Assembly: GCF_000341895.1 (NCBI RefSeq)
Contig: NC_020409.1
Location: 1,950,001-1,982,000 of the forward strand
Reading direction: 5' to 3'
Origin: Pseudodesulfovibrio piezophilus C1TLV30
GTDB taxonomy: Bacteria; Desulfobacterota; Desulfovibrionia; Desulfovibrionales; Desulfovibrionaceae
DNA: 32,000 bases
Below, one piece after another: positions 6,375 to 23,922 of the stretch. A model generated the notes under the pieces. That model had not been told where the DNA came from. It ran no database searches and worked only from the letters and a program-made list of their open reading frames with translations. A program made the position numbers and the translations under genes. Positions within the stretch are counted from its first letter, which is position 1, and each line of letters begins with the position of its first letter.

Positions 6375-6383
6375 GAGTGAAAA

Positions 6384-6427
6384 GAGCGATACCGAACTTG
6401 AATCCGGCATCGCTCATTCGCCGTTTT
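6384..6427 (+). terminator. Candidate rho-independent terminator after the ferritin-like gene
   Basis: GAGCGAT(A)CCG ... CGG(C)ATCGCTC stem with 7+3 bp and one mismatch, at 6384-6415. It is followed by ATTCGCCGTTTTCCC. Confidence 0.35.
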
Positions 6428-6484
6428 CCCTCGCAGTATTGAGGGCTGGAGTACCTCAAAGGCGGAAGCGGCAAGGAGATCGGG

Positions 6485-8227: not shown

Positions 8228-8334
8228 CAACAACCATCCTCGACCCAGGAGGGGTGCTCTCTTTCGGGGGCCCCCTCCACGTTCGAGGGAAAACCGGACG
8301 ATGTCGCCCGGCGAAAACACCCAACGGAGGGGTC

Positions 8335-9198: not shown

Positions 9199-9207
9199 AA
9201 GGATACC

Positions 9208-10794: not shown

Positions 10795-10810
10795 TGTCCT
10801 GGAGGAAATC

Positions 10811-11083
10811 ATGAACCGGAAAATCACGCTCTACGCACTCAGCACATGCACTCACTGCCACAACGTCGGCACACTCCTGGAAGAATTGCTCGGGCCAAAG
10901 GGGTTTACACATATTTATGTGGATCGTCTCTCTGGCGACGAACGCAATATCACCATGCGTGCCCTCCGTACCAAAAACCCGGAAATGTCCTTCCCCACCA
11001 CAGTCATCGGGGATAAAGTGATCACTGGTGAAAAATTGGATGTCATCAGGAAACTGGTCGAAGAGGCATCCCCTCAAAAATAA
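10811..11083 (+). CDS. Small glutaredoxin-like thioredoxin-fold protein (CxxC = CTHC)
   Basis: Start at ATG 10811 (MNRKITLYALSTCTHCH), preceded by GGAGGA at 10801-10806. It is 90 aa with a beta-alpha-beta start and an active-site CTHC. The longer ORF from 10709 overlaps the nadB 3' end. Confidence 0.65.
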   Translation: MNRKITLYALSTCTHCHNVGTLLEELLGPKGFTHIYVDRLSGDERNITMRALRTKNPEMSFPTTVIGDKVITGEKLDVIRKLVEEASPQK

Positions 11084-11084: not shown

Positions 11085-11690
11085 TCAGTTCAATGCCTCT
11101 TCAACCTGATCCGGGGCAATGGACTCAGCCAAAACCTGCAAGCCCGAATCTGCTCGAGCCAGTACACAGCACCAGCCATGCCGTGGAGTAAAGTGAAAAA
11201 GATCGTCCAAAGGATGCCCTGTCAGACGACACAGGAGAGAACGAATCACGCCAGCATGGGTCGCAGCCAGAATCGGAAGAGTTGACTCCGGCAAAGATTC
11301 CAGGACCGAAAGAGCACGGGCAGCCACATCTGCGAAAGACTCTCCTCCGGGTGGACGAAACGAAGCGAACCGGCGTCCACGCTGCTCATACGCCTCGGCA
11401 TCCGTCTGCTTGAGAACCGCAAAGGATTGTCCCTCCCACAGCCCCATATCGATCTCATCAAGCCCTGGCAGGGTTTCCACATCGAGCCCAAGATGAAGGG
11501 CCAGGGGAGCGACCGTTTCCATGGCACGGACGGCCGGGCTTGAGACAATCCTGCCAAACCGCACCGCGCCGAGAGTGGAAATCAGACCGTGTGCTTGAAC
11601 AACGCCAGCCGGGGACAGAGGGAGCGGCGTTTGTCCAATGCATCGCCCTGTTCCGCCGGAAGTCCGGGCATGCCGAACAAGGACGATCAT
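11085..11690 (-). CDS. Histidine phosphatase family protein (phosphoglycerate mutase / CobC-like); last gene of the mop-linked operon
   Basis: 201 aa. N-terminal MIVLVRHARTS (an RHG-type motif, here RHA) and a distal ATHAGVIR histidine. The start overlaps the upstream stop as ATGA (11687-11690). Confidence 0.7.
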   Translation of the reverse strand: MIVLVRHARTSGGTGRCIGQTPLPLSPAGVVQAHGLISTLGAVRFGRIVSSPAVRAMETVAPLALHLGLDVETLPGLDEIDMGLWEGQSFAVLKQTDAEAYEQRGRRFASFRPPGGESFADVAARALSVLESLPESTLPILAATHAGVIRSLLCRLTGHPLDDLFHFTPRHGWCCVLARADSGLQVLAESIAPDQVEEALN

Positions 11691-12814
11691 CCGCCCCCCT
11701 CGAAAGCCAGGGTTTCCACGTCCACGCCTATCACACGCTCGAGGCGCGCCCGCACGGCATTGGCCCGTTCCTGTCTGGCCCGAATGGCTTTCCTGGCTTC
11801 TGGACGATCGCCAAAGAGCATCAGCTTGGCCTCATACCTGGCATTAAGCCGAACCGGAGAGCTTCCCTGCACCAATTTATCGGCAAGAAAGACGATCTCC
11901 TTTTCAGTCATGTTGTCCCGTTCCCCAAGAGAGAGATCCGAATGTTCCCGGACAATTTGGGCCGCATCGGTAAAACCGTGTTCGAGTAACCGCCATGCAC
12001 CCACCGCGTCATGATGCTTTCGACCCTTGCCAATGTCATGAACCATGGCAGCCCCGGTTGCCAACGCCGGATTCAAAAGCGCATGGGGCGTACATGTTTC
12101 ATTAAATCTGAGACAAAGAATTTTGGCCACACGGGCAACGGCTGCACAGTGCTCTCGAATATCCTGTGAAACTCCATAGACATCCCACAGTTGTTCCCAC
12201 TCCTCAGCGAAGGGGTATTCCTGCCCCACGCGCTTCATGGCAAATTCATAGTCAGCCGGATGATCGAGGTCCCTGAGTGATCCGGCGTCAGTCACCACGA
12301 GATCGTGCGCCCCGGACTCAAAGGTATCCAGCAAGGCCCGCAAGCCGCCCTGCCCATCATGCGTGAGAATGTGAGGGATAAGGCTGGAGGAAATAAGTGG
12401 GGGATGGCCCCGTTGCCCCTGAAACCGTGGGTAGAAAACAGAGGCATCGCTTTCGGAGAAAGCCTGGATAAGCCGGGTAACGGTTTCAACCCGAACAAGG
12501 GGGATATCCACCGGAAGCAGGAAGAATCCGGATATGGTTGGATCGAGGGCACGGATTCCGGTCAGAACTGATGAAAACATGCCCTGTTCATAGTCGGCAT
12601 TGTGAACTGCCACGGCTCCGGCCCGACGGGCGGCGGACGCCACCTCTTCCGCTCTTTTTCCTGTCACAACTATAATTCGAGCCACCCCATTCTGCCGAAA
12701 AACTTCAATACAGCGGGACAGCACTGTTCCCGAGCCAAGGGGGAGCAACGGCTTGAACGATCCCATGCGCGAGGAAAGCCCTGCTGATGGGATCACAGCC
12801 GCCAACCTGGTCAT
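11687..12814 (-). CDS. MobA/MocA-like NTP transferase fused to an HD phosphohydrolase domain
   Basis: Start at ATG 12814 (MTRLAAVIPSAGLSSRMGSFKPLLPLG, the nucleotidyltransferase signature). It overlaps the xdhC stop as ATGA (12811-12814). The C-terminal half carries VHDIGKGRKHHD (HD domain). Confidence 0.75.
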   Translation of the reverse strand: MTRLAAVIPSAGLSSRMGSFKPLLPLGSGTVLSRCIEVFRQNGVARIIVVTGKRAEEVASAARRAGAVAVHNADYEQGMFSSVLTGIRALDPTISGFFLLPVDIPLVRVETVTRLIQAFSESDASVFYPRFQGQRGHPPLISSSLIPHILTHDGQGGLRALLDTFESGAHDLVVTDAGSLRDLDHPADYEFAMKRVGQEYPFAEEWEQLWDVYGVSQDIREHCAAVARVAKILCLRFNETCTPHALLNPALATGAAMVHDIGKGRKHHDAVGAWRLLEHGFTDAAQIVREHSDLSLGERDNMTEKEIVFLADKLVQGSSPVRLNARYEAKLMLFGDRPEARKAIRARQERANAVRARLERVIGVDVETLAFEGGG

Positions 12815-13800
12815 GTTCCCTCCCCGGAACGAACCTGAATCAGCTCGGCACAAATACTGACAGCAATCTCTTCCGGAGTCTGCGCGCCAATGGGCAGTCC
12901 GATGGGACAGGAGCATCGATCAATGTCCTTCTGTGAAAAACCTTCCTCAAGAAGAACGGCATAAATGGAGTCGCGCTTTCTGCGACTGCCGATCATTCCG
13001 ATATAACCGGCGACAGTTCCCAGCGCTTCCGCCAGAACAGTTTTGTCATGCAGATGGCCACGAGTCACAATGATCACGAATGAATCCTTGCGCACATCCA
13101 ACGCTTCGCAACACCCTTTGAAGGAGGAGAGCACCACGACTTCATCAGCTTCGGGAAACCGTTCCGCATTGGCAAAATCAGCCCGATCATCCAGAACCAC
13201 CGTTCGAAAACCAATCATGGCCGCGACCCGAGCCGTGAATTGAGACACATGCCCGGCCCCGAATATATAAAGCGAGGGAGCAGGAATAAACGGTTCAACA
13301 AGTTTCAATTCCGTCTCGGTTTTTTCAAAAGTCGGGGTCTCTCCCTGCATGAATTCAATTCGAATTTCATGACTCACGGCGCGTAGCTGATCACTCTTTT
13401 CAAATCGGGTACACAACGCGGCACGGGTGCCCTTACGCAGCAAGCCATCGAGATCAACATAAGCGGCAGCGCATGGCCCGTCCGGTTCCACGACCTCCAT
13501 GAGCACGGTCAGACCTCCCCCGCAGATCATGTCCGACTCGGCAGCCAGCTCCTGTGTCATGTCCACGTAGGATACCTGCGCAGTTCCGTCCCCGCTTTCC
13601 ATCAGCTTCAGGCTGTCCCGGCAAGCGTGGGCTTCAGCCAATCCTCCTCCCACAGTGCCAAAGATGGAACCATCGCCTCGAACCACCATTTTGGCCCCGG
13701 AAGACCGGGGAGTGGAACCGGAGCTTTCCACCACGGAAACCATAACAAAGGTCTCTTTCGCTTCCACAAGATCACATACCGAACGGACAAATTTCTTCAT
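12811..13800 (-). CDS. xdhC: XdhC/CoxI-family molybdenum-cofactor insertion chaperone
   Basis: 329 aa. N-terminal VMVSVVESSGSTPRSSGAKMVV...GTVGGG and a C-terminal Rossmann-like LYIFGAGHV are typical of XdhC. RBS GGGGAG upstream. Confidence 0.75.
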   Translation of the reverse strand: MKKFVRSVCDLVEAKETFVMVSVVESSGSTPRSSGAKMVVRGDGSIFGTVGGGLAEAHACRDSLKLMESGDGTAQVSYVDMTQELAAESDMICGGGLTVLMEVVEPDGPCAAAYVDLDGLLRKGTRAALCTRFEKSDQLRAVSHEIRIEFMQGETPTFEKTETELKLVEPFIPAPSLYIFGAGHVSQFTARVAAMIGFRTVVLDDRADFANAERFPEADEVVVLSSFKGCCEALDVRKDSFVIIVTRGHLHDKTVLAEALGTVAGYIGMIGSRRKRDSIYAVLLEEGFSQKDIDRCSCPIGLPIGAQTPEEIAVSICAELIQVRSGEGT

Positions 13801-13803
13801 GAG

Positions 13804-15114
13804 TCAACTCCCCAAATGCAATTCAATGCGGCGTTTGCCAAGCCCCTGGACCGCAGGAACTCCACCATTTTCGATCTGTATCTCTATCTTGAACATTCCC
13901 TGCGTCACTCCACGCTGCAAAGGCTCCACAGTCTCAAGAGCTGCTCTGACCCGCCGGGACACACCTTCTCCCCAGCTACTTACCGTCACTCGGATCTCGC
14001 CCGGCAGAACTGCCACGCAGAAATCATCCAGCCCGTCCACAGCGTACAAAACCTCATTCAACTCCTGAAGACCAATCACGCCTGTGCCGATATCCACACC
14101 TTCATCTCGCCGAAAAACTCGTGGGTCCAGTCGTCGAGCAGGGCTGCCACAGGCGCATTGCCCGGATACAATCCGCCCAGAATCCCCTGTCCGGTACCGT
14201 ATCAATGGCATCCCGCGCCGCAAGGGAGTGCTGACCACTATCTCTCCGAATTCTCCGTCCGGGAGCAATTCTCCTGTTTCCGGGCACACTATTTCCACAT
14301 ACACATCAGCCTCCCGCACATGCAGGCCAGAGCCAGGGCTGCACTCCACGGCTCCACCGAGACCCGTCTCAATCATGCCCCAATGCCGGAAAACCTTGCA
14401 GCCAAAAGCCTTTTCCACATTCTGTACCACAATTCCGGGGGCCATGTCCCAACACAAAAGCACGGAACGAATTTGATCCTTGGGCAAACACTCCCGCTCC
14501 CAGGCGCGGGCCACCATGTTGAGATGGGCGGATGGCCCGACAATGCACCGAACCTGCTCACGCAAACACCGGGCAATGACGTCACCCGTTCTATCAAAAA
14601 TACCATATGGAACAGGCCTGGCACCAGCCCGCGTCAGAGCGTCCACAAGCAGCCGTCCCACTCCATCCGGCCGATCGCCAGGCATGAGCACGAGCACGCC
14701 TTCATCAATTCCTACCAAGTTTGCCATACCCCATCGAAAATAGTCGACGGTCGCCTCCAGATCGGCATGCGTATGAAAAACCCGCTTGGGTGGGCCAGTG
14801 GTCCCGGAGCTGTGTAAGGTGACAACACGAGCCACTGCATCACGGGACAGACACAGCAATTGTTCCGGGTCCCGACGCAGGTCATCCGCCGTCATGGTCG
14901 GCAGAGAAGAAAAGTCATCCAATGAGGCAATCTTCTCAGGAAACACCGTCTCAAAGTGTCGGGCATAAAACGGACTGTTTTTCGAAGCATGTTCGACAAT
15001 CCTGCGCAACTGATCAAGCTGCCAACTGCGCAGAAACTCCCGAGTCGGAGGGTGGTCCGTCCCGAGCCAGCCCAGACGCAGGGCGAGACATTGATCAAGA
15101 TTGGACAGGCCCAT
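13804..15114 (-). CDS. PaaK / coenzyme F390 synthetase-like adenylate-forming enzyme (AMP-dependent ligase)
   Basis: Contains the SSGTTGPPKRV AMP-binding motif. The N-terminus LRSWQLDQLRRIVEHASKNSPFYARHF is typical of phenylacetate-CoA-ligase-like proteins. ATG 15114 with RBS GGGGGA is preferred over the GTG at 15141. Confidence 0.7.
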   Translation of the reverse strand: MGLSNLDQCLALRLGWLGTDHPPTREFLRSWQLDQLRRIVEHASKNSPFYARHFETVFPEKIASLDDFSSLPTMTADDLRRDPEQLLCLSRDAVARVVTLHSSGTTGPPKRVFHTHADLEATVDYFRWGMANLVGIDEGVLVLMPGDRPDGVGRLLVDALTRAGARPVPYGIFDRTGDVIARCLREQVRCIVGPSAHLNMVARAWERECLPKDQIRSVLLCWDMAPGIVVQNVEKAFGCKVFRHWGMIETGLGGAVECSPGSGLHVREADVYVEIVCPETGELLPDGEFGEIVVSTPLRRGMPLIRYRTGDSGRIVSGQCACGSPARRLDPRVFRRDEGVDIGTGVIGLQELNEVLYAVDGLDDFCVAVLPGEIRVTVSSWGEGVSRRVRAALETVEPLQRGVTQGMFKIEIQIENGGVPAVQGLGKRRIELHLGS

Positions 15115-16456
15115 GACATTTCCCCCGATACAGGCTTTCACCGTCCATGGATGTCAGGTTGTAGGCGCAGAAGGGAATCAATCTCCCGTCCGGCGAAACC
15201 ACATGAATACAACACCCCTTGAGACGTTCCAGATCAAGTGTCCAGGCATCCTGAAAAGCCATGGCTGAAATAGCCAGCGTATGCGTGGCGGCCCGTTCGA
15301 TGAAGACATCCAGTTCATCAGGGACATCGGTTGTCATGGCATGGGCCATGGGCAGGGACGTTCCCGGTGCTGCCCACTGTCGCTTGACAAAAGCCTTGGC
15401 CTTGTCAGCCCCCTCTTCCGCCGGTCGCGGCGCACACCCGCACTGCCCCTTGGCAGAAAGTCGTTTGAGGGCACGGGATTCCGTCACCACATAGTTGGCA
15501 TGAAAAGAACAATGGGAATGCTCGCACCCCGGCGGCTGAAAATCAATGGCTCGAATACTTCCTCCGGTCTGCTCTTCAAGGGAACGCATCAACTCAGGCA
15601 GCGTGATTCGCTGTGCATCATCCGGTGCATCGGGATACCGGCCAAAATAGCTCACCGGCTGAAAATGGACACCCCGTACTCCGGGGGAATGCAGGGAAGC
15701 TAACCGTACTATTGCACCCAGGTCATGCTCATTGACTCCCGGCACCACAGTAGGGACCAGGACAACACCCACCCCGACCTCAGTCAAAGCTTCCATAGCC
15801 GCGATTTTGTCCGCAAGAAGCGGTTTTCCTCGAAGTGACCCGTAAATATCATCGCTGGTCCCGTCAAATTGCAAAAAGACCGAGGACAAGCCTGCTTCAG
15901 CCAATGTGGCGGCATATCCCGGCTCCCGGGCAAGGCGCAGGCCATTGGTATTGAGTTGGACAAAGGGAAACCCTTTGCCACGCGCCAGACGAATCAAGGC
16001 TGGCAGATCATCTCGCACGGTCGGCTCTCCACCTGAGAGTTGAATATTGCACAGCCCGGAAATCCGAATGACCCTATCCAACAAAAAACCGATTTCTTCC
16101 ACTGCCGGATCGGTCTGTGCCTGCTTGCCCGAGGACGCAAAACAGACAGGACACCCGAGATCACACCGCCAGGTCACCTCAATCAAAGCTGTACAGGTAT
16201 GCTGCCGATGGGCACCACAAAGACCGCAGTCATTAGGGCACCCCTTCTCAACCTTGGTCAAAGGCTCCTTGGGCAGAGAGGGAATCTTGGCTCGTGACCA
16301 GCCATGAAAATCAGGCGTACCTCGCCAGACAACAGTCCTAAAAACACCGTGTTCCGGACATTCCTTGACCAAAAAAGTCTCACCATTCACGCTTTCGTGG
16401 GTCGCAATGACCGGAGCCAGGCAGACAGGGCAGACGCTGCGCGGAAGAGCACTCAT
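15095..16456 (-). CDS. Radical SAM enzyme with N-terminal zinc-ribbon and extra Cys-rich segment (COG1964-like architecture)
   Basis: 453 aa. Zinc-ribbon-like CPVC...CPEHG, then CPNDCGLCGAHRQHTC, then the radical SAM CX3CX2C motif (WRCDLGCPVCFA). The start overlaps the upstream stop as ATGA (16453-16456). Confidence 0.75.
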   Translation of the reverse strand: MSALPRSVCPVCLAPVIATHESVNGETFLVKECPEHGVFRTVVWRGTPDFHGWSRAKIPSLPKEPLTKVEKGCPNDCGLCGAHRQHTCTALIEVTWRCDLGCPVCFASSGKQAQTDPAVEEIGFLLDRVIRISGLCNIQLSGGEPTVRDDLPALIRLARGKGFPFVQLNTNGLRLAREPGYAATLAEAGLSSVFLQFDGTSDDIYGSLRGKPLLADKIAAMEALTEVGVGVVLVPTVVPGVNEHDLGAIVRLASLHSPGVRGVHFQPVSYFGRYPDAPDDAQRITLPELMRSLEEQTGGSIRAIDFQPPGCEHSHCSFHANYVVTESRALKRLSAKGQCGCAPRPAEEGADKAKAFVKRQWAAPGTSLPMAHAMTTDVPDELDVFIERAATHTLAISAMAFQDAWTLDLERLKGCCIHVVSPDGRLIPFCAYNLTSMDGESLYRGKCHGPVQS

Positions 16457-16908
16457 GGCATGTCCCGGCCCTCGGCCGGATCAAAATTATTTTCAGCCAC
16501 AATTTCGCGGACCTTCTCATGTGCGTCGGCAAGAAGTCCGCCACACAAAACAGGATCGGCCTGCCCACACCGGCCATCCAAGATATGACCGCATGTCGTC
16601 CCGCCATGTTCGGCAGTACGCTCCGCAAACCAATCTCGCAAAGACTCCAGCATGACAGGAAGCACTTCTTCGGCCTCTTCCAAATCCGTACCCTTGCCAC
16701 CGAACACCCCCAAGACCATGGCCGCACCAGTCAGCACACCACACGGACCGGAACAGTCTCCGAGCCCATTGCACAATCCAGCCGCTGCCCTGACCAGATC
16801 AGGATTTTCCCTGTCCATTTCATCCAGAGTCAGCAGAACCATGATCTGGCTGCAACAATACCCTTTGCCTGCCAATTCCATCATTCGCAATCCGGCGTCA
16901 CCCACCAT
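16453..16908 (-). CDS. C_GCAxxG_C_C family protein (putative redox-active Cys protein)
   Basis: 151 aa. Pattern GYCCSQIMVL ... SGPCGVLTGAAMVLG ... TTCGHILDGRCG ... LCGG matches the C / GCAxxG-like / C / C pattern of this family. It overlaps the methyltransferase 3' end by 11 nt; an alternative start is at 16884. Confidence 0.65.
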   Translation of the reverse strand: MVGDAGLRMMELAGKGYCCSQIMVLLTLDEMDRENPDLVRAAAGLCNGLGDCSGPCGVLTGAAMVLGVFGGKGTDLEEAEEVLPVMLESLRDWFAERTAEHGGTTCGHILDGRCGQADPVLCGGLLADAHEKVREIVAENNFDPAEGRDMP

Positions 16909-17578
16909 TTTCCAACCCTTTTTTCTGCGCGATCACAAGATGATACCCGACCCTGCGACTTTCACAAGTACACTGGTTACGAGGCTTTCCGTCAATGAAT
17001 ATCAGTTTGGCCGCCAACTCCTTGAGATGACGGGAATGGTCTTCCACCAGAAAGACCGAAAATCCCTGTGCCACAAGCATCTCCCGCGTGACCGAGAGCG
17101 GACCGGCCCGATCCGCACAAGAGGCACCACTTCCAACGCCCTCTCCGCCTTCTCCGTGAAGGTCAGACAGCACCAAAAAACCTCCGGGCCTGAGGACACG
17201 ATAAAATTCACGCAAACCAGCGCTCTTGTCGTCAAACAAAGAGAGAACACATTCACAAAAAAGCGCATGAAAGACCCCATCACCAAAGGGAAGTATAGCA
17301 CCGTCAGCCTGGACACACCTGCTTCCAGTCGAAGCACGCTGAATCTGCTGCAACGATGTTTCCACCCCAAAGGCTTGTGCTCCGTAACGGGAGCAAAGGC
17401 GTTTCATGGTCGCTCCCAGGCCGCTCCCGACATCAAGAACCCGCCAGCCAGGGACCACGCCAATCAATTCCGCCGCCCTGTCCGTCAAATTCAATCCACC
17501 AGGCCGCAGCGTCGTCCCTGCCGCCGCACGCAGTTCCGCACGCTCCCACAGAGGAATAGCAGCTTCAGGCGTGGTCAT
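16898..17578 (-). CDS. Class I SAM-dependent methyltransferase
   Basis: 226 aa. Motif I is VLDVGSGLGATMKRL, and an acidic post-I region and motif II/III-like segments are visible. The start overlaps the upstream stop as ATGA (17575-17578). Confidence 0.75.
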   Translation of the reverse strand: MTTPEAAIPLWERAELRAAAGTTLRPGGLNLTDRAAELIGVVPGWRVLDVGSGLGATMKRLCSRYGAQAFGVETSLQQIQRASTGSRCVQADGAILPFGDGVFHALFCECVLSLFDDKSAGLREFYRVLRPGGFLVLSDLHGEGGEGVGSGASCADRAGPLSVTREMLVAQGFSVFLVEDHSRHLKELAAKLIFIDGKPRNQCTCESRRVGYHLVIAQKKGLENGG

Positions 17579-17790
17579 TTATCCTCCAACAACTGCTCCA
17601 CGGAATGCATCTTACCAAGGGCAAGCCCCTCTGGAATCAACACCAACCCGCACTTCGGGCAGGTCGGCAATTCCACGTTGAATAAAGAGTCGAGATATTC
17701 AAGCTCCACGGCGCGTGGCACCAACTTCTCATTGCAGGTCGCACACTGCCAGGCAGCGGCATCCGCTTCCGGCACCTTGATGACACTCAT
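17575..17790 (-). CDS. Small zinc-ribbon / double-CxxC protein (71 aa)
   Basis: Start at ATG 17790 (MSVIKVPEAD), overlapping the upstream stop as ATGA (17787-17790). Two CxxC pairs are present: CATC and CPKC. The longer ORF to 17823 would lie inside the upstream gene. Confidence 0.55.
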   Translation of the reverse strand: MSVIKVPEADAAAWQCATCNEKLVPRAVELEYLDSLFNVELPTCPKCGLVLIPEGLALGKMHSVEQLLEDK

Positions 17791-20033
17791 GCCTGTCCCC
17801 CCTTGATGCGCATACGGTGGCACCAGACATTATGAACGGTAAAGACATCGCCGGAACGCTCGAACTCCACCCAATAGGTGACGGTCACCGGCCGGAATGA
17901 AGCCAAAAGCCGACCAGTTTCACTATTGACAAAGCTCCGCCCCGAGTCCCGAACCTGCAACAACGTCTTTTGCACATCACTTTTAAGAATCCGCCGCTCT
18001 TCCATCAGCCGAGCAGCCTCTTCAGTGAACGTCACCTCGATGGATTCGAACGGTTCTTCTGCACCGCTATCCTGCTCGCGCCACATCTCCCGGAGCAAAT
18101 GCTCCCTGAGATGCACTCGATTTTCCCGGCGTTCGGAATATCCCGGCGATGGACGCGCACCAGCATCTCCGCTTACAGGATACAAGACATCGTACAAGTG
18201 GAGAGCCCGCTTGCCTACCTTGACGAATCGATCGCGGCACATGATGCAGTACGTCACGAAATCTTCCTGAACCGAGTCGGCCCTGTGCTCTGTTATCGCA
18301 TCGGCAAGCGAGGAATTGGCCTCGGCCACCAACCCGCCATAGCCACAACATTCCGTGGTTTCCCCTGTCAATTCGGGTTCGACCACGGCCTGCGCCACCT
18401 CACCGAGCAGCATCCGGACATCCTCCCGCATCATGAGATCATGCCGTGCGGAACAGGGATCATTGATAGCGACAGTCCCACACCTGGACGCAGACCTAGG
18501 CACGCCGAGCGCTCGAAGAATCGTGTAGTGTGAAGTGATTTCCGCACCGGGCAACACTTTTTTCAAAGCGCCCAGACAGGAAGGACAGGAGGCGATAATC
18601 TTGGGCTGTCCCAGGGATGCCCACATGGCGGCAAGATGGTGTGTGGCTTCGGCCTTCATATCTTCACGCCCCGCCCATTCTGCCGGGATACCACAACAAT
18701 GCAGTATCAATCCCACCTGACCTATCCGGTGGCACAGGTCGGCATAGGCTCGCTGCACGACACCGGGGTTGGAAGCAGTCAATTGACAGCCGGGGAAAAA
18801 AACATATTCACTCGAATCCGTTCCCGGCGCATGACGGGCCAGGGAAACAGAATCCCGATTGGCAAAGAGCATATCCCGCAGGGCAAATTCATGGGCCGAT
18901 TGTGGCATCTTCCCATGCTGCACCATACTGAGACGTGCCTCATGGCACAAATCAGCCATGGCGAAATCTTCAGGGCAAACGACTTCGCACAGCCCGCACA
19001 AAGTACAGGAGTTAATCATGCCATTGGCTTGACGTGTGCCCATGACAATAGATTCGTTATTGGAAATTTGACGAGCATACACTTTGGGATATGCCTTGTA
19101 ATGCTTCAGATATTCACACTTTTTCACACATTCAAGACACTCGCACTGAAGGCAGCGCCGAGCCTCGGCACAAGCGGCCTTTTCGTCATATCCTTCATCT
19201 TCCGACACGGGAGAAGCCGAAGAAACCTTTTCGAGACTGGTGAACAGACGCGTCTCATACGCCCCTTCCTTTTCCCTGCCTGTCACCATGGAGACGCCTT
19301 GGGTAAAGCGCTCCAGGGAATTGGCTGCGCGACGCCCCGTGGCGGCCTGCAAAATAAAAGAGGGTTCCCCCAACGGACTGGCAAACAATCCTCGAAGCTG
19401 TGTCCCCAGTGTCATCGCATCCGGCTTATCAAGCCCCGCAGCAAGCTCAGGAAAAGCATCCGAATCAAGAAAAACCGCATCACTCTGCTCAATCAGGGAG
19501 AGGAGCATCGCTTTCTCGACCACAATGCCGGTTTCCATGGTGACGCCCAGTTTGCCAAGATTTTCCAGTTCCCGAACAAGCACCCCTTCGTCGAGAAAAG
19601 CCAATTCTCCCGCGACGCTGTCACAGTACAGGGTCACGTCAAATCCTCTGCGAGCCATCTCCCAGGCAGCACACAGTCCGGTGAGATTGCCACCAACAAC
19701 GGCCACATGTTTGTGCCGCGATGGCAATGGGCGGGGAGGGGAAACAGGCTTGGCAGTCTCAGCGCAGAACCGCTCCAACGTCCCCATTTCTATGGGACCA
19801 CCTGCATCCTTGCGCACGCATGCCTCACGGCACGGCGCATCACAAATTCGGGCCAGAACTCCTGGCAGGGGCATGGTCTTGGCGAGAACTGTCCATGCCT
19901 TGTCCCACCGTTTCTGCGCCATCAAAGAGCAGAAAGTGCGTCCATCCACATGCAAAGGGCATGCAGCGACGCACTGCGGAGGTTCCTCCTGAATACATTT
20001 ACTTTCCCACTGTCTCAGTTCAGCCTGTTCCAT
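17787..20033 (-). CDS. Multidomain oxidoreductase: GltD-like N-terminal Fe-S domain, dinucleotide-fold domain, 2x[4Fe-4S] ferredoxin and two HdrD/GlpC-like CCG domains
   Basis: 748 aa. GltD-type N-terminus CVAACPLHVD...ARICDAPCREACV. Degenerate Rossmann motif VAVVGGNLTGLCAAW. Ferredoxin motifs CLQCECLECVKKC and CTLCGLCEVVCP. CCG-type motifs FFPGCQL...HCCGIP and NDPCSARH...ECCGYGG. RBS GGAAGGA upstream. Confidence 0.7.
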   Translation of the reverse strand: MEQAELRQWESKCIQEEPPQCVAACPLHVDGRTFCSLMAQKRWDKAWTVLAKTMPLPGVLARICDAPCREACVRKDAGGPIEMGTLERFCAETAKPVSPPRPLPSRHKHVAVVGGNLTGLCAAWEMARRGFDVTLYCDSVAGELAFLDEGVLVRELENLGKLGVTMETGIVVEKAMLLSLIEQSDAVFLDSDAFPELAAGLDKPDAMTLGTQLRGLFASPLGEPSFILQAATGRRAANSLERFTQGVSMVTGREKEGAYETRLFTSLEKVSSASPVSEDEGYDEKAACAEARRCLQCECLECVKKCEYLKHYKAYPKVYARQISNNESIVMGTRQANGMINSCTLCGLCEVVCPEDFAMADLCHEARLSMVQHGKMPQSAHEFALRDMLFANRDSVSLARHAPGTDSSEYVFFPGCQLTASNPGVVQRAYADLCHRIGQVGLILHCCGIPAEWAGREDMKAEATHHLAAMWASLGQPKIIASCPSCLGALKKVLPGAEITSHYTILRALGVPRSASRCGTVAINDPCSARHDLMMREDVRMLLGEVAQAVVEPELTGETTECCGYGGLVAEANSSLADAITEHRADSVQEDFVTYCIMCRDRFVKVGKRALHLYDVLYPVSGDAGARPSPGYSERRENRVHLREHLLREMWREQDSGAEEPFESIEVTFTEEAARLMEERRILKSDVQKTLLQVRDSGRSFVNSETGRLLASFRPVTVTYWVEFERSGDVFTVHNVWCHRMRIKGGQA

Positions 20034-20055
20034 ATTCCTTCCGAGAAAGAATCAA

Positions 20056-20089
20056 GACAGCGGCCCATCTTGGAGGACGGACCGCTGTC
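20056..20089 (-). terminator. Intercistronic hairpin between mop and the downstream accessory genes (partial terminator or attenuator candidate)
   Basis: GACAGCGG (20056-20063) and CCGCTGTC (20082-20089) are exact reverse complements. On the minus strand the stem is followed by TTGATTCTTTCTC, then the RBS of the next gene. Confidence 0.4.
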
Positions 20090-20106
20090 AATGAGTTTAC
20101 AGAGTC

Positions 20107-22824
20107 TTAGCCCTTGAGTCCGGCCAACACCTTTTCAGGCAGTGCAGGCAGGTCTCTAATACGAACACCACACGCATTGGCTATGGCGTTGATAACAGCG
20201 GCATGAGGAGCTGTGAGCGGCATTTCACCGACTCCGGAGGCTCCGAAGGGACCGTCGGGACGTGGGCTCTCGACATAGATGATCTCCATGTTGTCGGGGA
20301 TCTGCTTGATGTACGGGAATCCGGCACCGACCATGGTCGAGTGCTTCTTGATGTCCTCATAATCTTCGCTCAGCGCCAAGCCGATACCCTGTGCTACACC
20401 GCCATGAATCTGACCGTCAACAACCAGGAAGTTATTGACGACACCAACATCGGCGACTGTGGTCATCTTTTCGACAGTCGTTTTTCCTGTTGCCAGTTCC
20501 ACTGCGACTTCCGACAGGAACAAACCGTACATGTAGCAACAGAAGGGGTTACCCTGTCCGTTTTCATCACAATCATTGGCCGGAGCGGTCCACTTGCCCT
20601 CATAACGCAGGGGCAGGTCTTCGGCGACCATTTCATCATAGGTACGGAAGCTGCCATCCGGTTTGCGCATGGCTTCCACGAGGGCTTCGCAGGCAACACG
20701 GGTGGCCTGACCGGTCACAACCTGGGAGCGACTGCCGCCAGCAGGTCCGGCATTGGGAGCCTTGCTCGTATCGTTCATGACCAATCTGATCTGATCAGGG
20801 GTGAGATTGAGCGGGCGCAGGGCCTCATGAGCAGTACCCAGTGTTCCCATATCCGCGCCCTGGCCATGGTCTTCCCAGCAGGAATATACGGTCACGGTAT
20901 TATCGGCATTAATACTGATATCAACCTGGGAGCTATCCGGGCCGTCAAGACCGGAACCATACACCCCAAGGCCGATTCCGACGCCGCGTTTGACTTCGGC
21001 AGTGGAATTCGCGGCAGCGCGTTTCTTGGCTTCTTCATATTTAGGCCGCAGGATGTCGAACATCTCCGGCAGTGAGTAGACTTCGGGGTCCTGGCCGGTG
21101 GGAGTGGTGGAACCTTCGCGATAGACGTTCTTGTAACGCAGCTCGAACGGGTCCATCCCCAGCTTCTCAGCCAGTTCATCCATGAGCACTTCAGACGGGA
21201 ATTCACTTTCAGGTGCGCCGTAGCCACGGAAAGCGGCTCCCCAGGCGTGGTTGGTGCAGACGGTGCGTCCTTCTCCACGGATATTCGGGATATCATATCC
21301 AGCGCCGATATACTGTGCTCCGCGCAGCGTCAGCAGATCACCGAATTCGGAGTAGGGACCGTGGTCAACGCTCCAATCGGTTTCCATGCCAAGCAGTTTG
21401 CCGTCCTTGGTGGCTGCATACCGCATCCAGGTCAGGAACGGAGAACGCTTACCGGTGTAGGTCTGCTGCTGGTGCCATGTGTAGTTCAGGAAGACGGGAC
21501 GGCCAGTGGCCAACGATGCCGCGCCAACCAGGGCTTCCATGGTCGGGCTGAACTTGTAGCCGAAGGTACCGCCAGTGGGGTTCTGAACCAAAACCAGATT
21601 CTCTGGCTCCACGCCGAGACCGGGGGCGATCATGTACAGATGCAGGTGCAAACCAATGGATTTGGAGTGAATGCAGAGTCTGCCTTCATCATCGGTGTAG
21701 GCAAAGCCGACATCCGGCTCGATGGGCATATGCGGCTGGCGAGAAGTATAAAAGTCGCCTTCCACAACCACGTCTGCCTTATCAAATATGGGAGCGGTAT
21801 CTTCGCCTTTGGCGATTTTCTGAGTATAGTAAACGTTGGGAGTTCCGGGATGAATCTCGATAGCGTCATCAGCCATGGCAGCCGGGGCGCTCATGTATTC
21901 GGGCAACTGCTCCAACTCAACCTTGACCTTGGAAACCGCGGCCTTGGCATTCTTTTCAGTATCAGCGCAGACAATGGCAATGGCATCGCCGTACTGAAAG
22001 ATCTTCTCATCGCAGAGAATGGGACGATCCCAGCCATCACCTTTGTTGGTCGGGAATGTGATCAATCCGGTAATCCGGTTCTTTCCCTTGACATCCTTGT
22101 GAGTGACGACCTTGAAGACACCGGGCATCTTCTCGGCTTCAGTGGTATCGATGGAAATGATCTTGGCATGAGAAACTTCAGCCTGAACCAGAGCGCACTG
22201 GAGGGTCTCAGCAGGCAGTTTCAGACCGATGTCCGCACCGAAGTCCCAGGTACCTGTGACCTTGGCAACTGCGGAAGGACGGGGATACTTGGTATTCCAG
22301 ATCCGTCCGTCATCGGGGATCTTGAATTCCAGTTCCTCAATCTTCATATCACCGCGCATGACAGCGGCGGCATCCTGCGTGGCGTCCACAAGCTGCTGAT
22401 ACCCGGTACAACGGCAGGCGTTGCGATGCTTCTGGAACCAATCGCGAATGTCTTCACGGCTGGGATCAGGGTGGGAATCAATAAGAGCCTTGACGGAAAC
22501 AATGAAACCGGGAGTGCAGAAACCGCACTGGGCACCGCCATGAGCCATCCATGCAACCTGAATCGGGTGCATGTGACTCGGAGTTCCGATGCCTTCAGTG
22601 GTTGTAATGCAGGCGCCTTCCTTGACGCGCTTCATTTTCATGGTGCACGAGCGAATCAGCTTGCCATCCACGATAACACTACAACTACCGCATTGGCCTG
22701 AACCACAGCCAACCTTGACACTGGTGAGGCCAAGATTCTGGCGCAAAACATTGGCGAGCGACTCATCTTGTTCGCACACCACCTGTTTGGACACGCCGTT
22801 CACGAAGAGCGTGAGTTTGATCAT
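20107..22824 (-). CDS. mop: Molybdenum (MCD) aldehyde oxidoreductase, Mop type (xanthine oxidase family, two [2Fe-2S], no FAD domain)
   Basis: Start at ATG 22824 (MIKLTLFVNGVSKQ...GLTSVKVGCGSGQCGSCSVIVDGKLIRSC) with RBS AAGGAGG. At 905 aa, it matches the roughly 907-aa Desulfovibrio gigas Mop layout. The second 2Fe-2S motif is GGAQCGFCTPG and a large Mo-binding domain follows. The track ORF start at 22899 adds 25 non-homologous residues. Confidence 0.85.
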   Translation of the reverse strand: MIKLTLFVNGVSKQVVCEQDESLANVLRQNLGLTSVKVGCGSGQCGSCSVIVDGKLIRSCTMKMKRVKEGACITTTEGIGTPSHMHPIQVAWMAHGGAQCGFCTPGFIVSVKALIDSHPDPSREDIRDWFQKHRNACRCTGYQQLVDATQDAAAVMRGDMKIEELEFKIPDDGRIWNTKYPRPSAVAKVTGTWDFGADIGLKLPAETLQCALVQAEVSHAKIISIDTTEAEKMPGVFKVVTHKDVKGKNRITGLITFPTNKGDGWDRPILCDEKIFQYGDAIAIVCADTEKNAKAAVSKVKVELEQLPEYMSAPAAMADDAIEIHPGTPNVYYTQKIAKGEDTAPIFDKADVVVEGDFYTSRQPHMPIEPDVGFAYTDDEGRLCIHSKSIGLHLHLYMIAPGLGVEPENLVLVQNPTGGTFGYKFSPTMEALVGAASLATGRPVFLNYTWHQQQTYTGKRSPFLTWMRYAATKDGKLLGMETDWSVDHGPYSEFGDLLTLRGAQYIGAGYDIPNIRGEGRTVCTNHAWGAAFRGYGAPESEFPSEVLMDELAEKLGMDPFELRYKNVYREGSTTPTGQDPEVYSLPEMFDILRPKYEEAKKRAAANSTAEVKRGVGIGLGVYGSGLDGPDSSQVDISINADNTVTVYSCWEDHGQGADMGTLGTAHEALRPLNLTPDQIRLVMNDTSKAPNAGPAGGSRSQVVTGQATRVACEALVEAMRKPDGSFRTYDEMVAEDLPLRYEGKWTAPANDCDENGQGNPFCCYMYGLFLSEVAVELATGKTTVEKMTTVADVGVVNNFLVVDGQIHGGVAQGIGLALSEDYEDIKKHSTMVGAGFPYIKQIPDNMEIIYVESPRPDGPFGASGVGEMPLTAPHAAVINAIANACGVRIRDLPALPEKVLAGLKG

Positions 22825-22905
22825 GACAGTATTCCTCCTTGGTATTTGGACTGTCTCACTTTGCAATTGGAAGATCGGGGCGAAAACACGACTATACAAT
22901 GAAAA

Positions 22906-23922
22906 CTATTTTCCAAAGGGACAAATGGGATATCGGCAGACATCGCAGGTTGCACAGAAACCGCCGTGTCCCAGGGCAACGATGTCTTCACGAGTCACTT
23001 CTTCACCGGCCAGCAACCTGGGAACCACCAGGTCGAAAATACTCGCTCGGTAATACATGACACATCCGGGAAGCCCCAGGATATGGACATCCCCCAGCTT
23101 GGCGACCATGAACATGGCACCGGGGAAAGTGGGAGCGCCGTAAGTGATGACCTCTGCTCCGGTGGCCCGGATTGCCGTGGGCGTCTGATCATCCGGATCC
23201 ACGGACATACCTCCGGTGACCATGACCATTTCAGCCCCCTCAGCAATGGTTGCGAGGATGGCATCCCGCGTCATGGATGGATCGTCGGATGACAATTTCT
23301 GATCCATGACTGTCGAGCCAAGCTTGGAAAATTTTCTCCGGATGACCGGACCGAATTTGTCCTTGATACGACCGTGGTACACCTCGCTGCCCGTAGTCAC
23401 GAGACCGACACGGAAATGGCGAAACGGACGAACCCCGACCACATAAGGGTATTCGGCACAAATGGCTTCCACCTGCTTTATCTTTGCTTCATCGATGACC
23501 AGAGGGACCACACGGGTTCCAGCCACCGGACCTGGGTCGGATATCTGAAGTCCGCTATGCATGGTGGACAACACCACTTCCTCAATGGAATTGATGCGGG
23601 TGAGCGCTTCGACATTGATGTCGAGCAGTCCGGGTGCGGCGATCATGTTGACCCGTCCTTCACAGACTTCGGTCAGCGTGATGCCCTGGCCGGATGCGGC
23701 TTTGGCAATACGGAATGCGGCTTCATCCTCATGGATGGTCCCCCGCTCCATATTCAAAACATAGATATGCTCCTTGCCCATTTCGAGCAGTGCGGAAACA
23801 TCCTCTTCGCCTATGACATGCCCTTTTCTAAAGGCCGGGCCTTTGCATTCTCCGGGAACTATTTTGGTCATGTCGTGGCACAAGACCATGCCCACGGCAT
23901 CCTGAACGGGAACTGTTTTCAT
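22906..23922 (-). CDS. Molybdopterin-binding protein (MoeA-N-like plus MoCF-biosynthesis/Mog-like domain) with a C-terminal Cys cluster
   Basis: 338 aa. The N-terminus MKTVPVQDAVGMVLCHDMT resembles the MoeA N-terminus. The central LVTTGSEV...MVMVTGGMSVDPDD resembles the MoaB/Mog fold. The C-terminal CATCDVCRYPICP is CxxCxxCxxxxCP. RBS GGAG lies 9 nt upstream. Confidence 0.65.
   Translation of the reverse strand: MKTVPVQDAVGMVLCHDMTKIVPGECKGPAFRKGHVIGEEDVSALLEMGKEHIYVLNMERGTIHEDEAAFRIAKAASGQGITLTEVCEGRVNMIAAPGLLDINVEALTRINSIEEVVLSTMHSGLQISDPGPVAGTRVVPLVIDEAKIKQVEAICAEYPYVVGVRPFRHFRVGLVTTGSEVYHGRIKDKFGPVIRRKFSKLGSTVMDQKLSSDDPSMTRDAILATIAEGAEMVMVTGGMSVDPDDQTPTAIRATGAEVITYGAPTFPGAMFMVAKLGDVHILGLPGCVMYYRASIFDLVVPRLLAGEEVTREDIVALGHGGFCATCDVCRYPICPFGK

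Follow-up and report, generated by a model that had tools for sequence, protein, structure and literature searches.

A well-described counterpart of the enzyme encoded at this locus is the aldehyde oxidoreductase MOP of Desulfovibrio gigas (DgAOR), which has been solved repeatedly with a plain Mo(=O)2(OH/H2O) center (PMC3877041; PMC10223205) and whose structures, including 1VLB and 4C7Y-type entries, are described with an ordinary pyranopterin cytidine dinucleotide (PMC3877041). Isolated DgAOR comes in an active and an inactive form; in the latter a dithiolene sulfur is oxidized, and strong reductants restore activity, whereas resulfuration does not (PMC3877041). Abundant Mop has been purified alone (PMC10223205; PMC10920352), and the partner of D. 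gigas MOP reconstituted in vitro is flavodoxin, rather than the Fe-S protein (g3) discussed below (PMC10223205). A chaperone role for XdhC is stated in PMC2997495.

The window, a 32,000-nucleotide stretch of the Pseudodesulfovibrio piezophilus C1TLV30 genome (NC_020409.1, positions 1,950,001 to 1,982,000), contains a minus-strand cluster at 11085-23922. An earlier note had described eleven genes here (g1 to g11, in minus-strand order); all eleven ORFs were found where it placed them, and its domain list agrees with the content found for each, except that a single histidine phosphatase is present where the note spoke of several. The junctions were also verified, with ATGA overlaps at 17787, 17575, 16453, 12811, and 11687, an 11-nt overlap between g5 and g6, a 20-nt overlap between g7 and g8 (taking ATG 15114), and a 3-nt gap between g8 and g9. 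Coupling along the cluster is not continuous, as gaps of 81 nt and 73 nt separate g1 from mop and mop from g3. Each of g2 to g10 scored above the curated cut-off of its own NCBIfam equivalog model (DVU_1551-1557 families and TrsS), which bears out the statement in the note that these families are listed without a function. The cluster is already catalogued, as the local copy of a widespread mop/TrsS neighborhood of anaerobic bacteria, and no published function for its genes was found in the literature searched.

Collinear gene order is shared by 80 loci, drawn from genomes of different species in several phyla, an arrangement far beyond chance. With the TrsS loci having enough flank for a given gene as denominators, mop lay within 10 kb of TrsS in 54/58 loci, and a near-universal core, each member at 90% or above, was made up of mop, the CCG/Fe-S protein g3 (56/62), the DUF7479 protein g4 (66/70), the methyltransferase g5 (64/70), the C_GCAxxG protein g6 (69/72), TrsS, and the PaaK-like ligase g8 (70/71). 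The variable part (45-64%) consists of XdhC (42/66), the MocA-HD protein (37/63), the histidine phosphatase (30/61), and the MoeA-like g1 (25/56). Taking Mop as the starting point, 4/4 orthologs looked up have the cluster, the Fretibacterium contig ending after TrsS. The linkage of the noncanonical genes to mop proposed earlier is supported from both sides.

The mop gene (g2; 20107..22824, minus strand) encodes a molybdopterin (MCD)-dependent aldehyde oxidoreductase (NF045668, 1715 bits versus a cut-off of 1100) that matches PDB 1DGJ and 1SIJ/1VLB over its full length (E=0). Translation most likely starts at ATG 22824, preceded by the ribosome-binding site AAGGAGG, and yields 905 aa; the mechanically derived 930-aa ORF was rejected as too long. 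Between mop and g3 lies a terminator-like GC-rich hairpin with a U-rich tail (20056..20089, minus strand), having a 14-bp stem with 9 GC pairs, a dG of −32.6 kcal/mol, and a z score of −5.35, with an equally good fold in 0/200 shuffles. Stable structures (z ≤ −2) occur 3' of mop in 41/57 loci, and 24 of those 41 have a T-rich tail. Because so strong a hairpin follows mop both here and elsewhere, Mop and the products of the downstream genes are probably made in unequal amounts, in keeping with the purification of Mop as an abundant protein by itself; the element could also be an attenuator, or could stabilize mRNA instead of ending transcription. The single eleven-gene stoichiometric operon envisaged earlier is not supported, given this hairpin and the patchy occurrence of the four variable genes.

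We put at about an even chance the reading in which the mop/TrsS locus pairs a structural gene with accessory genes that are expressed at a lower level and fall into three modules (A to C), the accessory genes providing a Mop-specific redox partner and a maturation/activation system rather than a pterin-tailoring pathway. The idea in the earlier note that these genes serve Mop or its redox partner survives in this weaker form, as the best reading, and its pterin-tailoring part is not supported. The gene content with its family assignments, synteny, and fusions was observed directly, as were the hairpin and a Cys/Sec site in TrsS; from this context we infer every biochemical role proposed below, including that of g3 to g8 in Mop activity.

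Module A would be g3 and g4 working as one Fe-S protein, the dedicated partner of FAD-less Mop, in electron transfer and thiol/disulfide reduction. The 748-aa g3 protein (17787..20033, minus strand; NF045663, 982 bits versus a cut-off of 530) contains Fer4_20, Rossmann, Fer4_17, and two CCG domains in Pfam terms. Its N-terminal module is of the GltD/NfnB 2x[4Fe-4S] type and includes a Rossmann remnant; a ferredoxin-like dicluster and two CCG domains of the HdrB type complete the protein, and 26 Cys are invariant. Its best PDB matches are NfnB/GltD-like modules, over residues 10-205 only, and YgfK/AegA-type families are among the matches. NAD(P)H coupling of g3 appears doubtful, because the P. 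piezophilus copy has a degenerate FAD motif and a domain not long enough to hold a complete FAD plus NADPH pair. In three loci (L013, L056, and L064), a second mop paralog (mop2) has a g3-like gene of its own after it. The adjoining g4 (17575..17790, minus strand; NF045645, 103 bits versus a cut-off of 60) encodes a 71-aa DUF7479/DVU_1557 zinc-ribbon protein, starting at an ATG (17790) within the overlap with g3, with four invariant Cys and an invariant C terminus, ...GKMxxVExxLEDK; 141 of the best 150 DUF7479 representatives end exactly at this LEDK tail. Because L083 and L084 have g4 fused to the C terminus of the CCG protein, and 8/8 longer DUF7479 representatives with a second domain detected are CCG/Fe-S fusions, g3 and g4 are treated as one module and g4 is read as a putative subunit of g3. 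The assembly would have motifs for four cubane-type clusters, the remnant of a flavin domain, the pair of HdrB-like CCG domains, and a zinc-ribbon subunit whose LEDK tail is free.

Module B, comprising the MoeA-like g1, XdhC, MocA-HD, the histidine phosphatase, and an upstream cysteine desulfurase, would represent canonical MCD handling that makes, protects, and inserts the cytidine dinucleotide cofactor and is dispensable in cis. All five genes are on the minus strand. The 338-aa g1 product (22906..23922) is a molybdopterin-binding protein of the MoCF_biosynth type (PF00994, E=3e-23), and g9 (12811..13800) is an XdhC-family Moco chaperone (NF045664, 415.7 bits versus a cut-off of 350). A MocA-like nucleotidyltransferase (NTP_transf_3) joined to an HD phosphohydrolase domain is encoded by g10 (11687..12814, start at ATG 12814; NF045665, 427.7 versus 315 bits); it matches MobA/MocA-related proteins in the PDB and scores 141.6 bits with the MocA model TIGR03310, below the cut-off of 186. 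The last gene, g11 (11085..11690), encodes a CobC-like branch-1 histidine phosphatase (His_Phos_1, PF00300, E=2e-43) that reaches 128.5 bits with TIGR03162, below the cut-off of 162.9. In L084, g1 is placed after the ligase gene and XdhC is fused to MocA-HD. The EF2568-type cysteine desulfurase family protein upstream of g1 (24589..25779; TIGR01977, 420 bits versus a cut-off of 377; Aminotran_5) probably donates sulfur (or selenium); its gene is a separate transcription unit from g1, with its own terminator-like hairpin at 24566-24537, and lies near the cluster in just a few other loci.

Module C, consisting of TrsS, g8, the Cys-rich g6, and usually g5, would carry out a Cys/Sec-dependent radical-SAM and adenylation step in molybdenum/tungsten-center or Moco handling, needed by Mop for maturation or (re)activation and leaving no stable covalent pterin change. 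All four genes are on the minus strand. TrsS (g7; 15095..16456), a radical SAM (seleno)protein, scores 682 bits with NF045646 (cut-off, 490) and is 100% identical to the RefSeq entry for P. piezophilus that already uses this name. The PaaK-like adenylating (AMP-binding) enzyme of the DVU_1553 family, g8 (13804..15114; NF045666, 429.5 bits versus a cut-off of 300), matches PaaK structures at E=1e-31 and has invariant C258 and C320xC322. The C_GCAxxG_C_C protein of the DVU_1555 family, g6 (16453..16908; NF045669, 171.5 bits versus a cut-off of 103), has invariant C19, C56, C106, and C122, and sequence search found no solved homolog. The DVU_1556-family class-I SAM methyltransferase, g5 (16898..17578; NF045667, 213 bits versus a cut-off of 155), is closest to generic small-molecule methyltransferases among solved structures and is absent from the Fretibacterium locus L085. 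In three closely related loci, clostridial TrsS (655 bits, above the family cut-off), which has no mop nearby, adjoins a CobW-type GTPase or is fused to it; in L054, a ModA/ModB/WtpC-like transporter and ModD come next after TrsS. The maturation/activation reading gains support from this context, which belongs to one narrow lineage (83-97% identity) with the transporter in one locus.

An unlikely alternative is that Mop is one catalytic step of a metabolic pathway in which the other genes act on what Mop consumes or produces; the ligase, for instance, might activate the carboxylate product of Mop or feed acid reduction, and TrsS and the methyltransferase might alter a carbon skeleton while g3, g4, and g6 carry electrons. 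A PaaK-like ligase nearest to phenylacetate-CoA ligases and a methyltransferase of small-molecule type would also fit this, an Fe-type alcohol dehydrogenase stands directly upstream of mop in L084, 4-hydroxybenzoyl-CoA reductase (an XO-family relative among the Mop matches) uses a CoA ester, and the physiological substrate of Mop is not established (PMC3877041). However, clostridial TrsS has as neighbors not mop but a GTPase of metallochaperone type and a Mo/W transporter, the core contains no recurring transporter or catabolic gene across the loci compared, the terminator-like hairpin points to downstream expression much lower than that of mop, the C-terminal ANL subdomain is often missing from g8, and an ATP-consuming ligase after non-CoA-acylating aldehyde oxidation would be wasteful in energy-limited anaerobes.

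More doubtful is the proposal that the LEDK tail of DUF7479 is modified by TrsS, g8, and g5, or serves them as a carrier arm, giving a new redox group on the partner protein of Mop. The tail is invariant across phyla and sits at the extreme C terminus even in fusions, and its low-confidence structure prediction would be consistent with a flexible arm. Radical SAM and ATP-dependent ligase sets, some with a methyltransferase, modify protein side chains in EF-P, diphthamide, PQQ, and mycofactocin, and Tes-type chemistry joins unactivated sp3 carbons. Against this, Pfam/NCBIfam profiles detected neither a SPASM nor an RRE domain in TrsS, no DUF7479 lies near clostridial TrsS, L027 and L029 keep TrsS and g8 with no detectable g4, a Foldseek search with the g4 model returned generic zinc fingers (best E=0.14) and no carrier-protein-like fold, and the tail could be a mere docking motif.

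Less likely again is a reductive (re)activation or repair system, in which g3, g4, and g6, possibly with TrsS, would restore oxidized, inactive Mop as the in vivo counterpart of the dithionite-plus-sulfide treatment needed in vitro. The reductant-rescued inactive form of DgAOR, the HdrB-type CCG domains of g3 (which elsewhere serve disulfide reduction), and the thiol or selenol candidates in g6 and at TrsS Cys88/Sec favor it, but the ligase and methyltransferase are left unexplained, we know of no precedent, and the idea shares ground with the maturation/activation reading, which already includes part of it.

The strong form of the first suggestion, in which TrsS together with the methyltransferase, the ligase, the HD domain, and the phosphatase makes a new nucleotide-linked, C-methylated or thiolated pterin as the real cofactor of Mop, is highly improbable. 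In its favor are the tight linkage to mop, the likeness of the gene set (radical SAM and adenylating enzymes, a methyltransferase, an NTP transferase, and Cys-rich proteins) to known organometallic-cofactor pathways, and the weak similarity of TrsS to MoaA and the "tungsten cofactor oxidoreductase radical SAM maturase" family. However, in D. gigas, which owns the cluster, MOP is described with its ordinary cofactor and Mo center, and the "nucleotide" and "tailoring" genes are not one obligatory pathway: MocA-HD and the phosphatase are absent from 40-50% of loci, including every Chloroflexota locus in the set, where the radical SAM enzyme and ligase are retained.

The D. gigas cluster runs MoCF-MOP-g3-g4-g5-g6-TrsS-g8-XdhC-HisPhos, with MocA-HD (g10) absent; a labile ligand could have been lost from aerobically purified, crystallized MOP, so that "no modification" covers stable covalent changes only. 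The g1 protein resembles MoeA domain III, its best PDB matches being to residues 171-317 of E. coli MoeA. TrsS resembles the tetraether synthase Tes (PDB 7TOL, E=8e-85), keeping the Tes Cys motifs in both aligned stretches, but it differs from Tes in an extra invariant residue, Cys88, which aligns with an in-frame TGA, read as selenocysteine, in the Fretibacterium locus.

All eleven minus-strand ORFs claimed in the earlier note were present, filling positions 11085 to 23922 with Pfam domains that match its list: a MoeA-like MoCF_biosynth protein (g1), the aldehyde oxidoreductase gene mop (g2), a 748-aa Fe-S/CCG protein (g3), a DUF7479 zinc ribbon (g4), a methyltransferase (g5), a C_GCAxxG_C_C protein (g6), the radical SAM enzyme TrsS (g7), a PaaK-like ligase (g8), XdhC (g9), a MocA-HD fusion (g10), and a histidine phosphatase (g11). 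Its five ATGA overlaps (17787, 17575, 16453, 12811, and 11687) could all be read in the junction sequence, and its other junctions were borne out as well, with g5 and g6 overlapping by 11 nt, g7 and g8 overlapping by 20 nt, and g8 and g9 separated by 3 nt. The cluster is real, nonrandom, and was correctly described. Probable minus-strand starts were ATG 22824 for mop (905 aa, with an AAGGAGG ribosome-binding site), ATG 17790 for the zinc ribbon (71 aa), ATG 15114 for the ligase, and ATG 12814 for MocA-HD. Just upstream of the cluster, an EF2568-type cysteine desulfurase (24589 to 25779, minus strand; TIGR01977 score of 420 versus a cutoff of 377) has its own terminator-like hairpin (24566 to 24537), and this separately terminated enzyme is a plausible sulfur donor. 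Rfam at the gathering threshold returned zero matches across the whole window, so no Moco riboswitch was detected there.

A plus-strand operon (504 to 10794) converges on the Mop cluster and encodes HdrA2-like (659 aa), MvhD/VhuD-like, and sulfhydrogenase beta- and gamma-like subunits, a NadB-like flavoprotein, and a tungsten-type aldehyde:ferredoxin oxidoreductase (AOR; 6485 to 8227), so that W-type and Mo-type aldehyde oxidoreductase operons stand tail to tail. A 324-aa ORF overlapping the AOR gene by 4 nt (8224 to 9198, plus strand) had no Pfam or NCBIfam match. Another plus-strand ORF of 124 aa (10709 to 11083) gave a weak glutaredoxin match below the Pfam cutoff (E = 3e-4), and its stop is 1 nt away from that of the oppositely oriented histidine phosphatase gene.

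Each of g2 to g10 exceeded the curated cutoff of its own NCBIfam equivalog: mop (NF045668 pterin_aldehy, 1715 versus a cutoff of 1100), g3 (NF045663 diclust_near_Sec, 982 versus 530), g4 (NF045645 DVU_1557_fam, 103 versus 60), g5 (NF045667 MTase_DVU1556, 213 versus 155), g6 (NF045669 DVU1555_fam_CGA, 171.5 versus 103), TrsS (NF045646 rSAM_Se_TrsS, 682 versus 490), g8 (NF045666 DVU1553_fam_AMP, 429.5 versus 300), g9 (NF045664 XdhC_rel_AOR, 415.7 versus 350), and g10 (NF045665 NTPtran_DVU1551, 427.7 versus 315). The gene order was likewise the same, and the window cluster is a member of the DVU_1551 to DVU_1559 neighborhood with no detectable difference. Because it is already modeled in NCBIfam, this neighborhood is not a discovery: the gene-by-gene models were known, as was the TrsS name in RefSeq for this species, where the entry [quoted passage not shown] and the window's protein share 100% identity. 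A passage of a 2026 review (PMC13188914) credits TrsS as a new selenoprotein family to Haft and Tolstoy (2025, mSystems 10:e0141724). The NCBIfam models supply names without functions, and full-text literature searches found no functional study of DVU155x genes, C_GCAxxG, DUF7479, or aldehyde oxidoreductase with radical SAM and XdhC, in line with the earlier note's description of locus-tag families lacking a function. Added here are the core/variable split among the genes, the conserved hairpin 3' of mop, the pairing of g3 with g4 and the invariant tail of this unit, the position of the Cys88/Sec site, the association of stand-alone TrsS with CobW and Mo/W genes, and an argument from Desulfovibrio gigas against stable tailoring of the pterin.

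When one genome per species was scanned with an alignment of TrsS, at least 589 TrsS relatives were detected, and the best 80 loci of these, which include Desulfovibrionaceae, other Desulfobacterota, Chloroflexota (Anaerolineae), Bacillota, Spirochaetia, and Campylobacterota, were used as the reference set (numbered L loci are TrsS/Mop loci in other genomes). Gene presence was scored by tblastn with the window proteins, counting only loci with sufficient flank. By this measure mop was found at 54 of 58 loci, g3 at 56 of 62, g4 at 66 of 70, g5 at 64 of 70, g6 at 69 of 72, and g8 at 70 of 71, compared to 42 of 66 for XdhC, 37 of 63 for MocA-HD, 30 of 61 for the histidine phosphatase, and 25 of 56 for g1. 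Thus mop and six other genes make up the conserved unit, g5 being the most dispensable of this core, and it is the textbook maturation genes that vary, the reverse of the naive expectation. The accessory genes were thus linked to mop from the TrsS side and also from the Mop side, where the cluster accompanied all four orthologues looked up (D. gigas, an Acidobacteriota metagenome-assembled genome [MAG], Desulfobacter curvatus, and Fretibacterium). The window's collinear order, mop-g3-g4-g5-g6-TrsS-g8, after which XdhC and MocA-HD usually come, was that of most of the 80 reference loci and of D. gigas.

Individual loci departed from this arrangement. Several core genes were missing from L027 and L029, where six-frame inspection revealed no hidden g4. 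At L031 (1212 to 5894), LRR, PIN-domain, and GmrSD-type restriction genes lie between the methyltransferase and TrsS, and the cluster therefore tolerates insertions. An apparently split formate dehydrogenase/NuoG-like molybdopterin oxidoreductase (438-aa and 551-aa ORFs) separates mop from g3 at L050 (3204 to 6200). In D. curvatus (L084), the MoeA-like g1 is 3' of the ligase gene, and an iron-type alcohol dehydrogenase gene is directly upstream of mop. Five Chloroflexota loci (L013, L018, L042, L056, and L064) carry a second Mop paralog of 959 to 987 aa (~44% identity) inside or beside the cluster; MocA-HD and the phosphatase are absent from these loci, and the only XdhC in some of them is divergent.

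The earlier note had read the cluster as one operon with stoichiometric coexpression. Instead, a 14-bp GC-rich hairpin with UUGAUUCUUU behind it sits in the 73-nt gap (20089 to 20056, minus strand; ΔG of −32.6 kcal/mol, z of −5.35), this hairpin and U tract lying between mop and g3, and translational coupling at the junctions is confined to g3 to g8 and g9 to g11. Of 57 loci, 41 had a comparable structure 3' of mop (median z of −3.4), in 24 of them with a T-rich tail. The hairpin therefore predicts plentiful mop mRNA and weaker readthrough into g3 to g11. This prediction agrees with the abundance of Aor in the Desulfovibrio vulgaris proteome (PMC10920352) and with the purification of Mop on its own (PMC10223205), and not with stoichiometric coexpression. 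In the D. vulgaris Hildenborough proteomics supplements, Aor was present and DVU_1551 to DVU_1558 were not among the listed proteins.

We give about an even chance to a reading in which mop is a structural gene accompanied by a lower-expressed, Mop-specific accessory set of three modules, every biochemical role being inferred. What the data show directly is which genes and families are present, their synteny and fusions, the hairpin, and the alignment of Cys with Sec. The first module, g3 and g4, would be a dedicated Fe-S, thiol-reducing redox partner of Mop. A second, comprising g1, XdhC, MocA-HD, the phosphatase, and the desulfurase, would assemble and insert the molybdopterin cytosine dinucleotide cofactor (MCD). 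The third, TrsS with g8, g6, and g5, would carry out a Cys/Sec-dependent radical and adenylation step in handling of the Mo center or Moco, a step that would be required for Mop maturation or (re)activation. Fusions and coduplications separate two of these modules, g3 and g4 with Mop on one side and g1/XdhC/MocA-HD on the other: a single protein combines g3 and g4 in L083 (874 aa) and L084 (838 aa), and the second mop paralog is followed by its own g3-like gene in three of four cases (L013, L056, and L064). XdhC, MocA, and HD form a single 715-aa protein in L084.

Support for the third module comes from TrsS itself. Its nearest solved relative in a PDB search was the tetraether synthase GDGT-MAS (PDB 7TOL, E = 8e-85), and Cys88 was invariant in an 11-sequence alignment. 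In the window, residue 88 is Cys (TGC/TGT) rather than UGA. In a Fretibacterium MAG (L085, 5844 to 7100), an in-frame TGA aligns with Cys88 and a hairpin begins 11 nt downstream, which locates a selenocysteine site; the TGA, probably a selenocysteine codon, is why this TrsS was called as two genes (75 and 339 aa). From this alignment, Cys88 is the probable catalytic thiol or selenol. No in-frame TGA was present at any Cys position of TrsS in the 80 loci, where apparent stops near residue 445, considered as Sec codons, were merely gene ends. The L085 locus also lacks the methyltransferase gene.

Two of the 80 loci, both from Clostridium, encode TrsS without a Mop cluster, and the Clostridium ragsdalei copy (L054, 655 bits) is above the family cutoff. 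Clostridial TrsS adjoins, or is fused with, a CobW/COG0523-type GTPase (L054, 8234 to 16912; L075, 8870 to 11332; and L086), and in C. ragsdalei a ModA/ModB/WtpC-like ABC transporter and ModD are 3' of TrsS. A metagenome scan for more clostridial TrsS found two loci, again next to CobW and with no added diversity. This context, from one lineage only, is independent evidence for TrsS in Mo/W handling. In about 12 of the 80 loci, the cluster is flanked by homologues of the C. ragsdalei Mo/W ABC permease. The clostridial proteins have CS in place of the CC motif at 415/416, and their loci yielded no ORF for a zinc ribbon with a terminal EDK. Peptide- or RiPP-type cofactor maturation, as for PQQ or mycofactocin, was rejected: Pfam and NCBIfam detected no SPASM or RRE domain in TrsS, PqqE and MftC matches were limited to the radical SAM core (56 to 59 bits), and g4 is a folded zinc ribbon, not a short precursor peptide.

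The PaaK-like g8 has a family-specific invariant Cys258 and Cys320-x-Cys322, and its C-terminal subdomain is missing in some genomes. Four Cys are conserved in g6, for which a PDB sequence search returned no solved homologue, and generic small-molecule methyltransferases were closest to g5. Rival readings of these genes partly overlap. They could belong to a metabolic pathway around Mop, which we consider unlikely; a ligase acting on Mop's acid product was considered and ranked low. It is rather doubtful, in turn, that TrsS, the ligase, the methyltransferase, and C_GCAxxG together make something novel for molybdoenzymes, either a redox group or carrier arm on the LEDK end of DUF7479 or a labile non-pterin Mo ligand or activation state lost on aerobic purification. 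If either were true, the 40-year-old view of Mop as a stand-alone homodimer with flavodoxin would be incomplete.

The end in question is a constant feature of the g4 family, which has four conserved Cys and an invariant extreme C terminus (...GKMxxVExxLEDK). Among the 150 best matches to the DUF7479 profile in a search of 1.84 billion representatives, 141 stopped exactly at the last profile position. Ten longer matches were checked: eight carried a fused CCG or Fe-S/CCG module, and the other two were DUF7479 alone or a below-cutoff match. That the LEDK tail is a modification site or carrier is nevertheless improbable. A LysW-like carrier is unsupported, because Foldseek of the g4 model (AlphaFold2, a mediocre pLDDT of 67.8) against the PDB found only generic zinc fingers (best E = 0.14). 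One database source calls a close g4 homologue (P0278) a "CLJU_RS11820 family redox protein," a possible sign of a related family of small redox proteins in Clostridium ljungdahlii.

The larger protein of this unit, g3, aligns with NfnB/GltD modules in a PDB sequence search only up to about residue 200. Its flavin-type GxGxxG/GG motif (19680 to 19720, residues ~105 to 135) is canonical in most other lineages and degenerate (VGGNLTG) in Pseudodesulfovibrio copies, where the ability to bind flavin may have been lost. The label "NAD(P)H-dependent" is unjustified for g3, given its degenerate motif here and a domain too short to hold a full FAD and NADPH pair. We think a purely reductive reactivation system quite improbable.

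The D. gigas enzyme bears on the earlier note's hypothesis that the cluster tailors Mop's pterin. D. gigas Mop was the first xanthine-oxidase-family enzyme with a solved structure. The window Mop has two [2Fe-2S] domains, an a/b hammerhead, and MoCoBD_1/2 in a single chain with no FAD domain, and it aligned over its full length with 1DGJ (residues 4 to 904) and 1SIJ (residues 1 to 906) at E = 0; by homology, it is an MCD-dependent aldehyde oxidoreductase of the Mop/MOD type, like D. gigas MOP and Desulfovibrio desulfuricans MOD. The D. gigas MOP sequence was rebuilt from the PDB alignment and matched to an identical database protein, whose locus (L081) was retrieved. Its order is MoCF_biosynth, MOP, nitroreductase, g3, DUF7479, methyltransferase, C_GCAxxG, TrsS, ligase, XdhC, histidine phosphatase, HEAT, so the crystallized MOP comes from a cell having the accessory set. 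The locus differs from the window in the nitroreductase gene 3' of mop (12800 to 13414), the HEAT-repeat gene at the end (21244 to 21861), and the absence of MocA-HD from the cluster. A periplasmic-binding-protein gene (PBP_like_2/SBP_bac_11; 6852 to 7724) is upstream. MOP structures from D. gigas (among them 1VLB and 4C7Y-type entries) are described with an ordinary pyranopterin cytidine dinucleotide and a Mo center with oxo and hydroxo ligands, in which the sulfido ligand is unnecessary and activity is set by dithiolene redox state; the physiological substrate, the electron acceptor, and the basis of sulfido-free action are unsettled in published work (PMC3877041, PMC10223205). Since D. gigas has the accessory genes and its MOP has the ordinary cofactor, a stable C-methylated or thiolated pterin is unlikely, although a labile feature could have disappeared when the enzyme was purified in air; the earlier note's hypothesis of a new pterin for Mop has only a slim chance of being correct.

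The comparative data show six unexplained genes that follow Mop more faithfully than the textbook maturation factors do. They provide concrete candidates, a dedicated Fe-S partner in g3/g4 and a Tes-like radical SAM enzyme that is tied to Mo/W handling and would have Cys or Sec at its active site, and their roles could disclose a new Mo-enzyme maturation or activation step in anaerobes, among them sulfate reducers of the gut and those relevant to corrosion. This is a well-posed question about a classic enzyme rather than a new kind of system.

Compared to canonical MCD maturation (MocA, XdhC/PaoD, and a cysteine desulfurase), the same domains are found in g10, g9, and the upstream desulfurase, but g10 is below the classical MocA model (TIGR03310, 141.6 versus 186.45) and g9 is below classical XdhC (TIGR02964, 139.7 versus 161.6). 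As homologous sister families, their function is therefore assigned by analogy only. A PDB search with g10 found generic relatives only, and g1 resembles MoeA domain III. The canonical route has no MocA-HD fusion, and six further conserved cluster genes have no counterpart in it. Selenium-dependent Mo hydroxylase loci (Escherichia coli xdhD-ygfK-ygfJ-yqeB-yqeC and Enterococcus faecalis EF2563 to EF2570) have in common with the window a xanthine-oxidase-family enzyme, a GltD/YgfK-like Fe-S protein, MocA-like and XdhC-like proteins, and an EF2568-type desulfurase; EF2568, namesake of TIGR01977, is a gene of the E. faecalis locus. Only that desulfurase model passed its cutoff among the tests for such a system. 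The window Mop scored 436 against Se_dep_XDH (TIGR03311), below 830, g3 could be aligned to YgfK over residues 21 to 136 only, and no cluster gene scanned against NCBIfam matched the YqeB/YqeC family. Selenium-dependent loci are not known to include radical SAM, ligase, methyltransferase, C_GCAxxG, or DUF7479 genes.

With HdrABC/HdrD and NfnB/GltD modules, g3 shares a GltD/NfnB-type N-terminal cluster domain, an HdrC-like dicluster, two HdrB-like CCG domains, and invariant Cys, but it is unlike them in being one polypeptide with a truncated flavin domain, an extra conserved C-terminal region, and a DUF7479 subunit. Tes/GDGT-MAS (MJ0619, 7TOL) and TrsS have in common, within aligned stretches, an N-terminal zinc-ribbon CxxC pair, an auxiliary CX3CX2C, the radical SAM CX3CX2C, and a C-terminal CCIH...PFC. 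TrsS is below the Tes model (NF045702, 348.8 versus a cutoff of 450), only residues 6 to 309 and 391 to 434 align with 7TOL, and the segment between 310 and 390 is unrelated. The invariant Cys88, which is Sec in L085, is an extra residue where Tes has Ile, and the genomic context of TrsS is molybdenum, not lipid.
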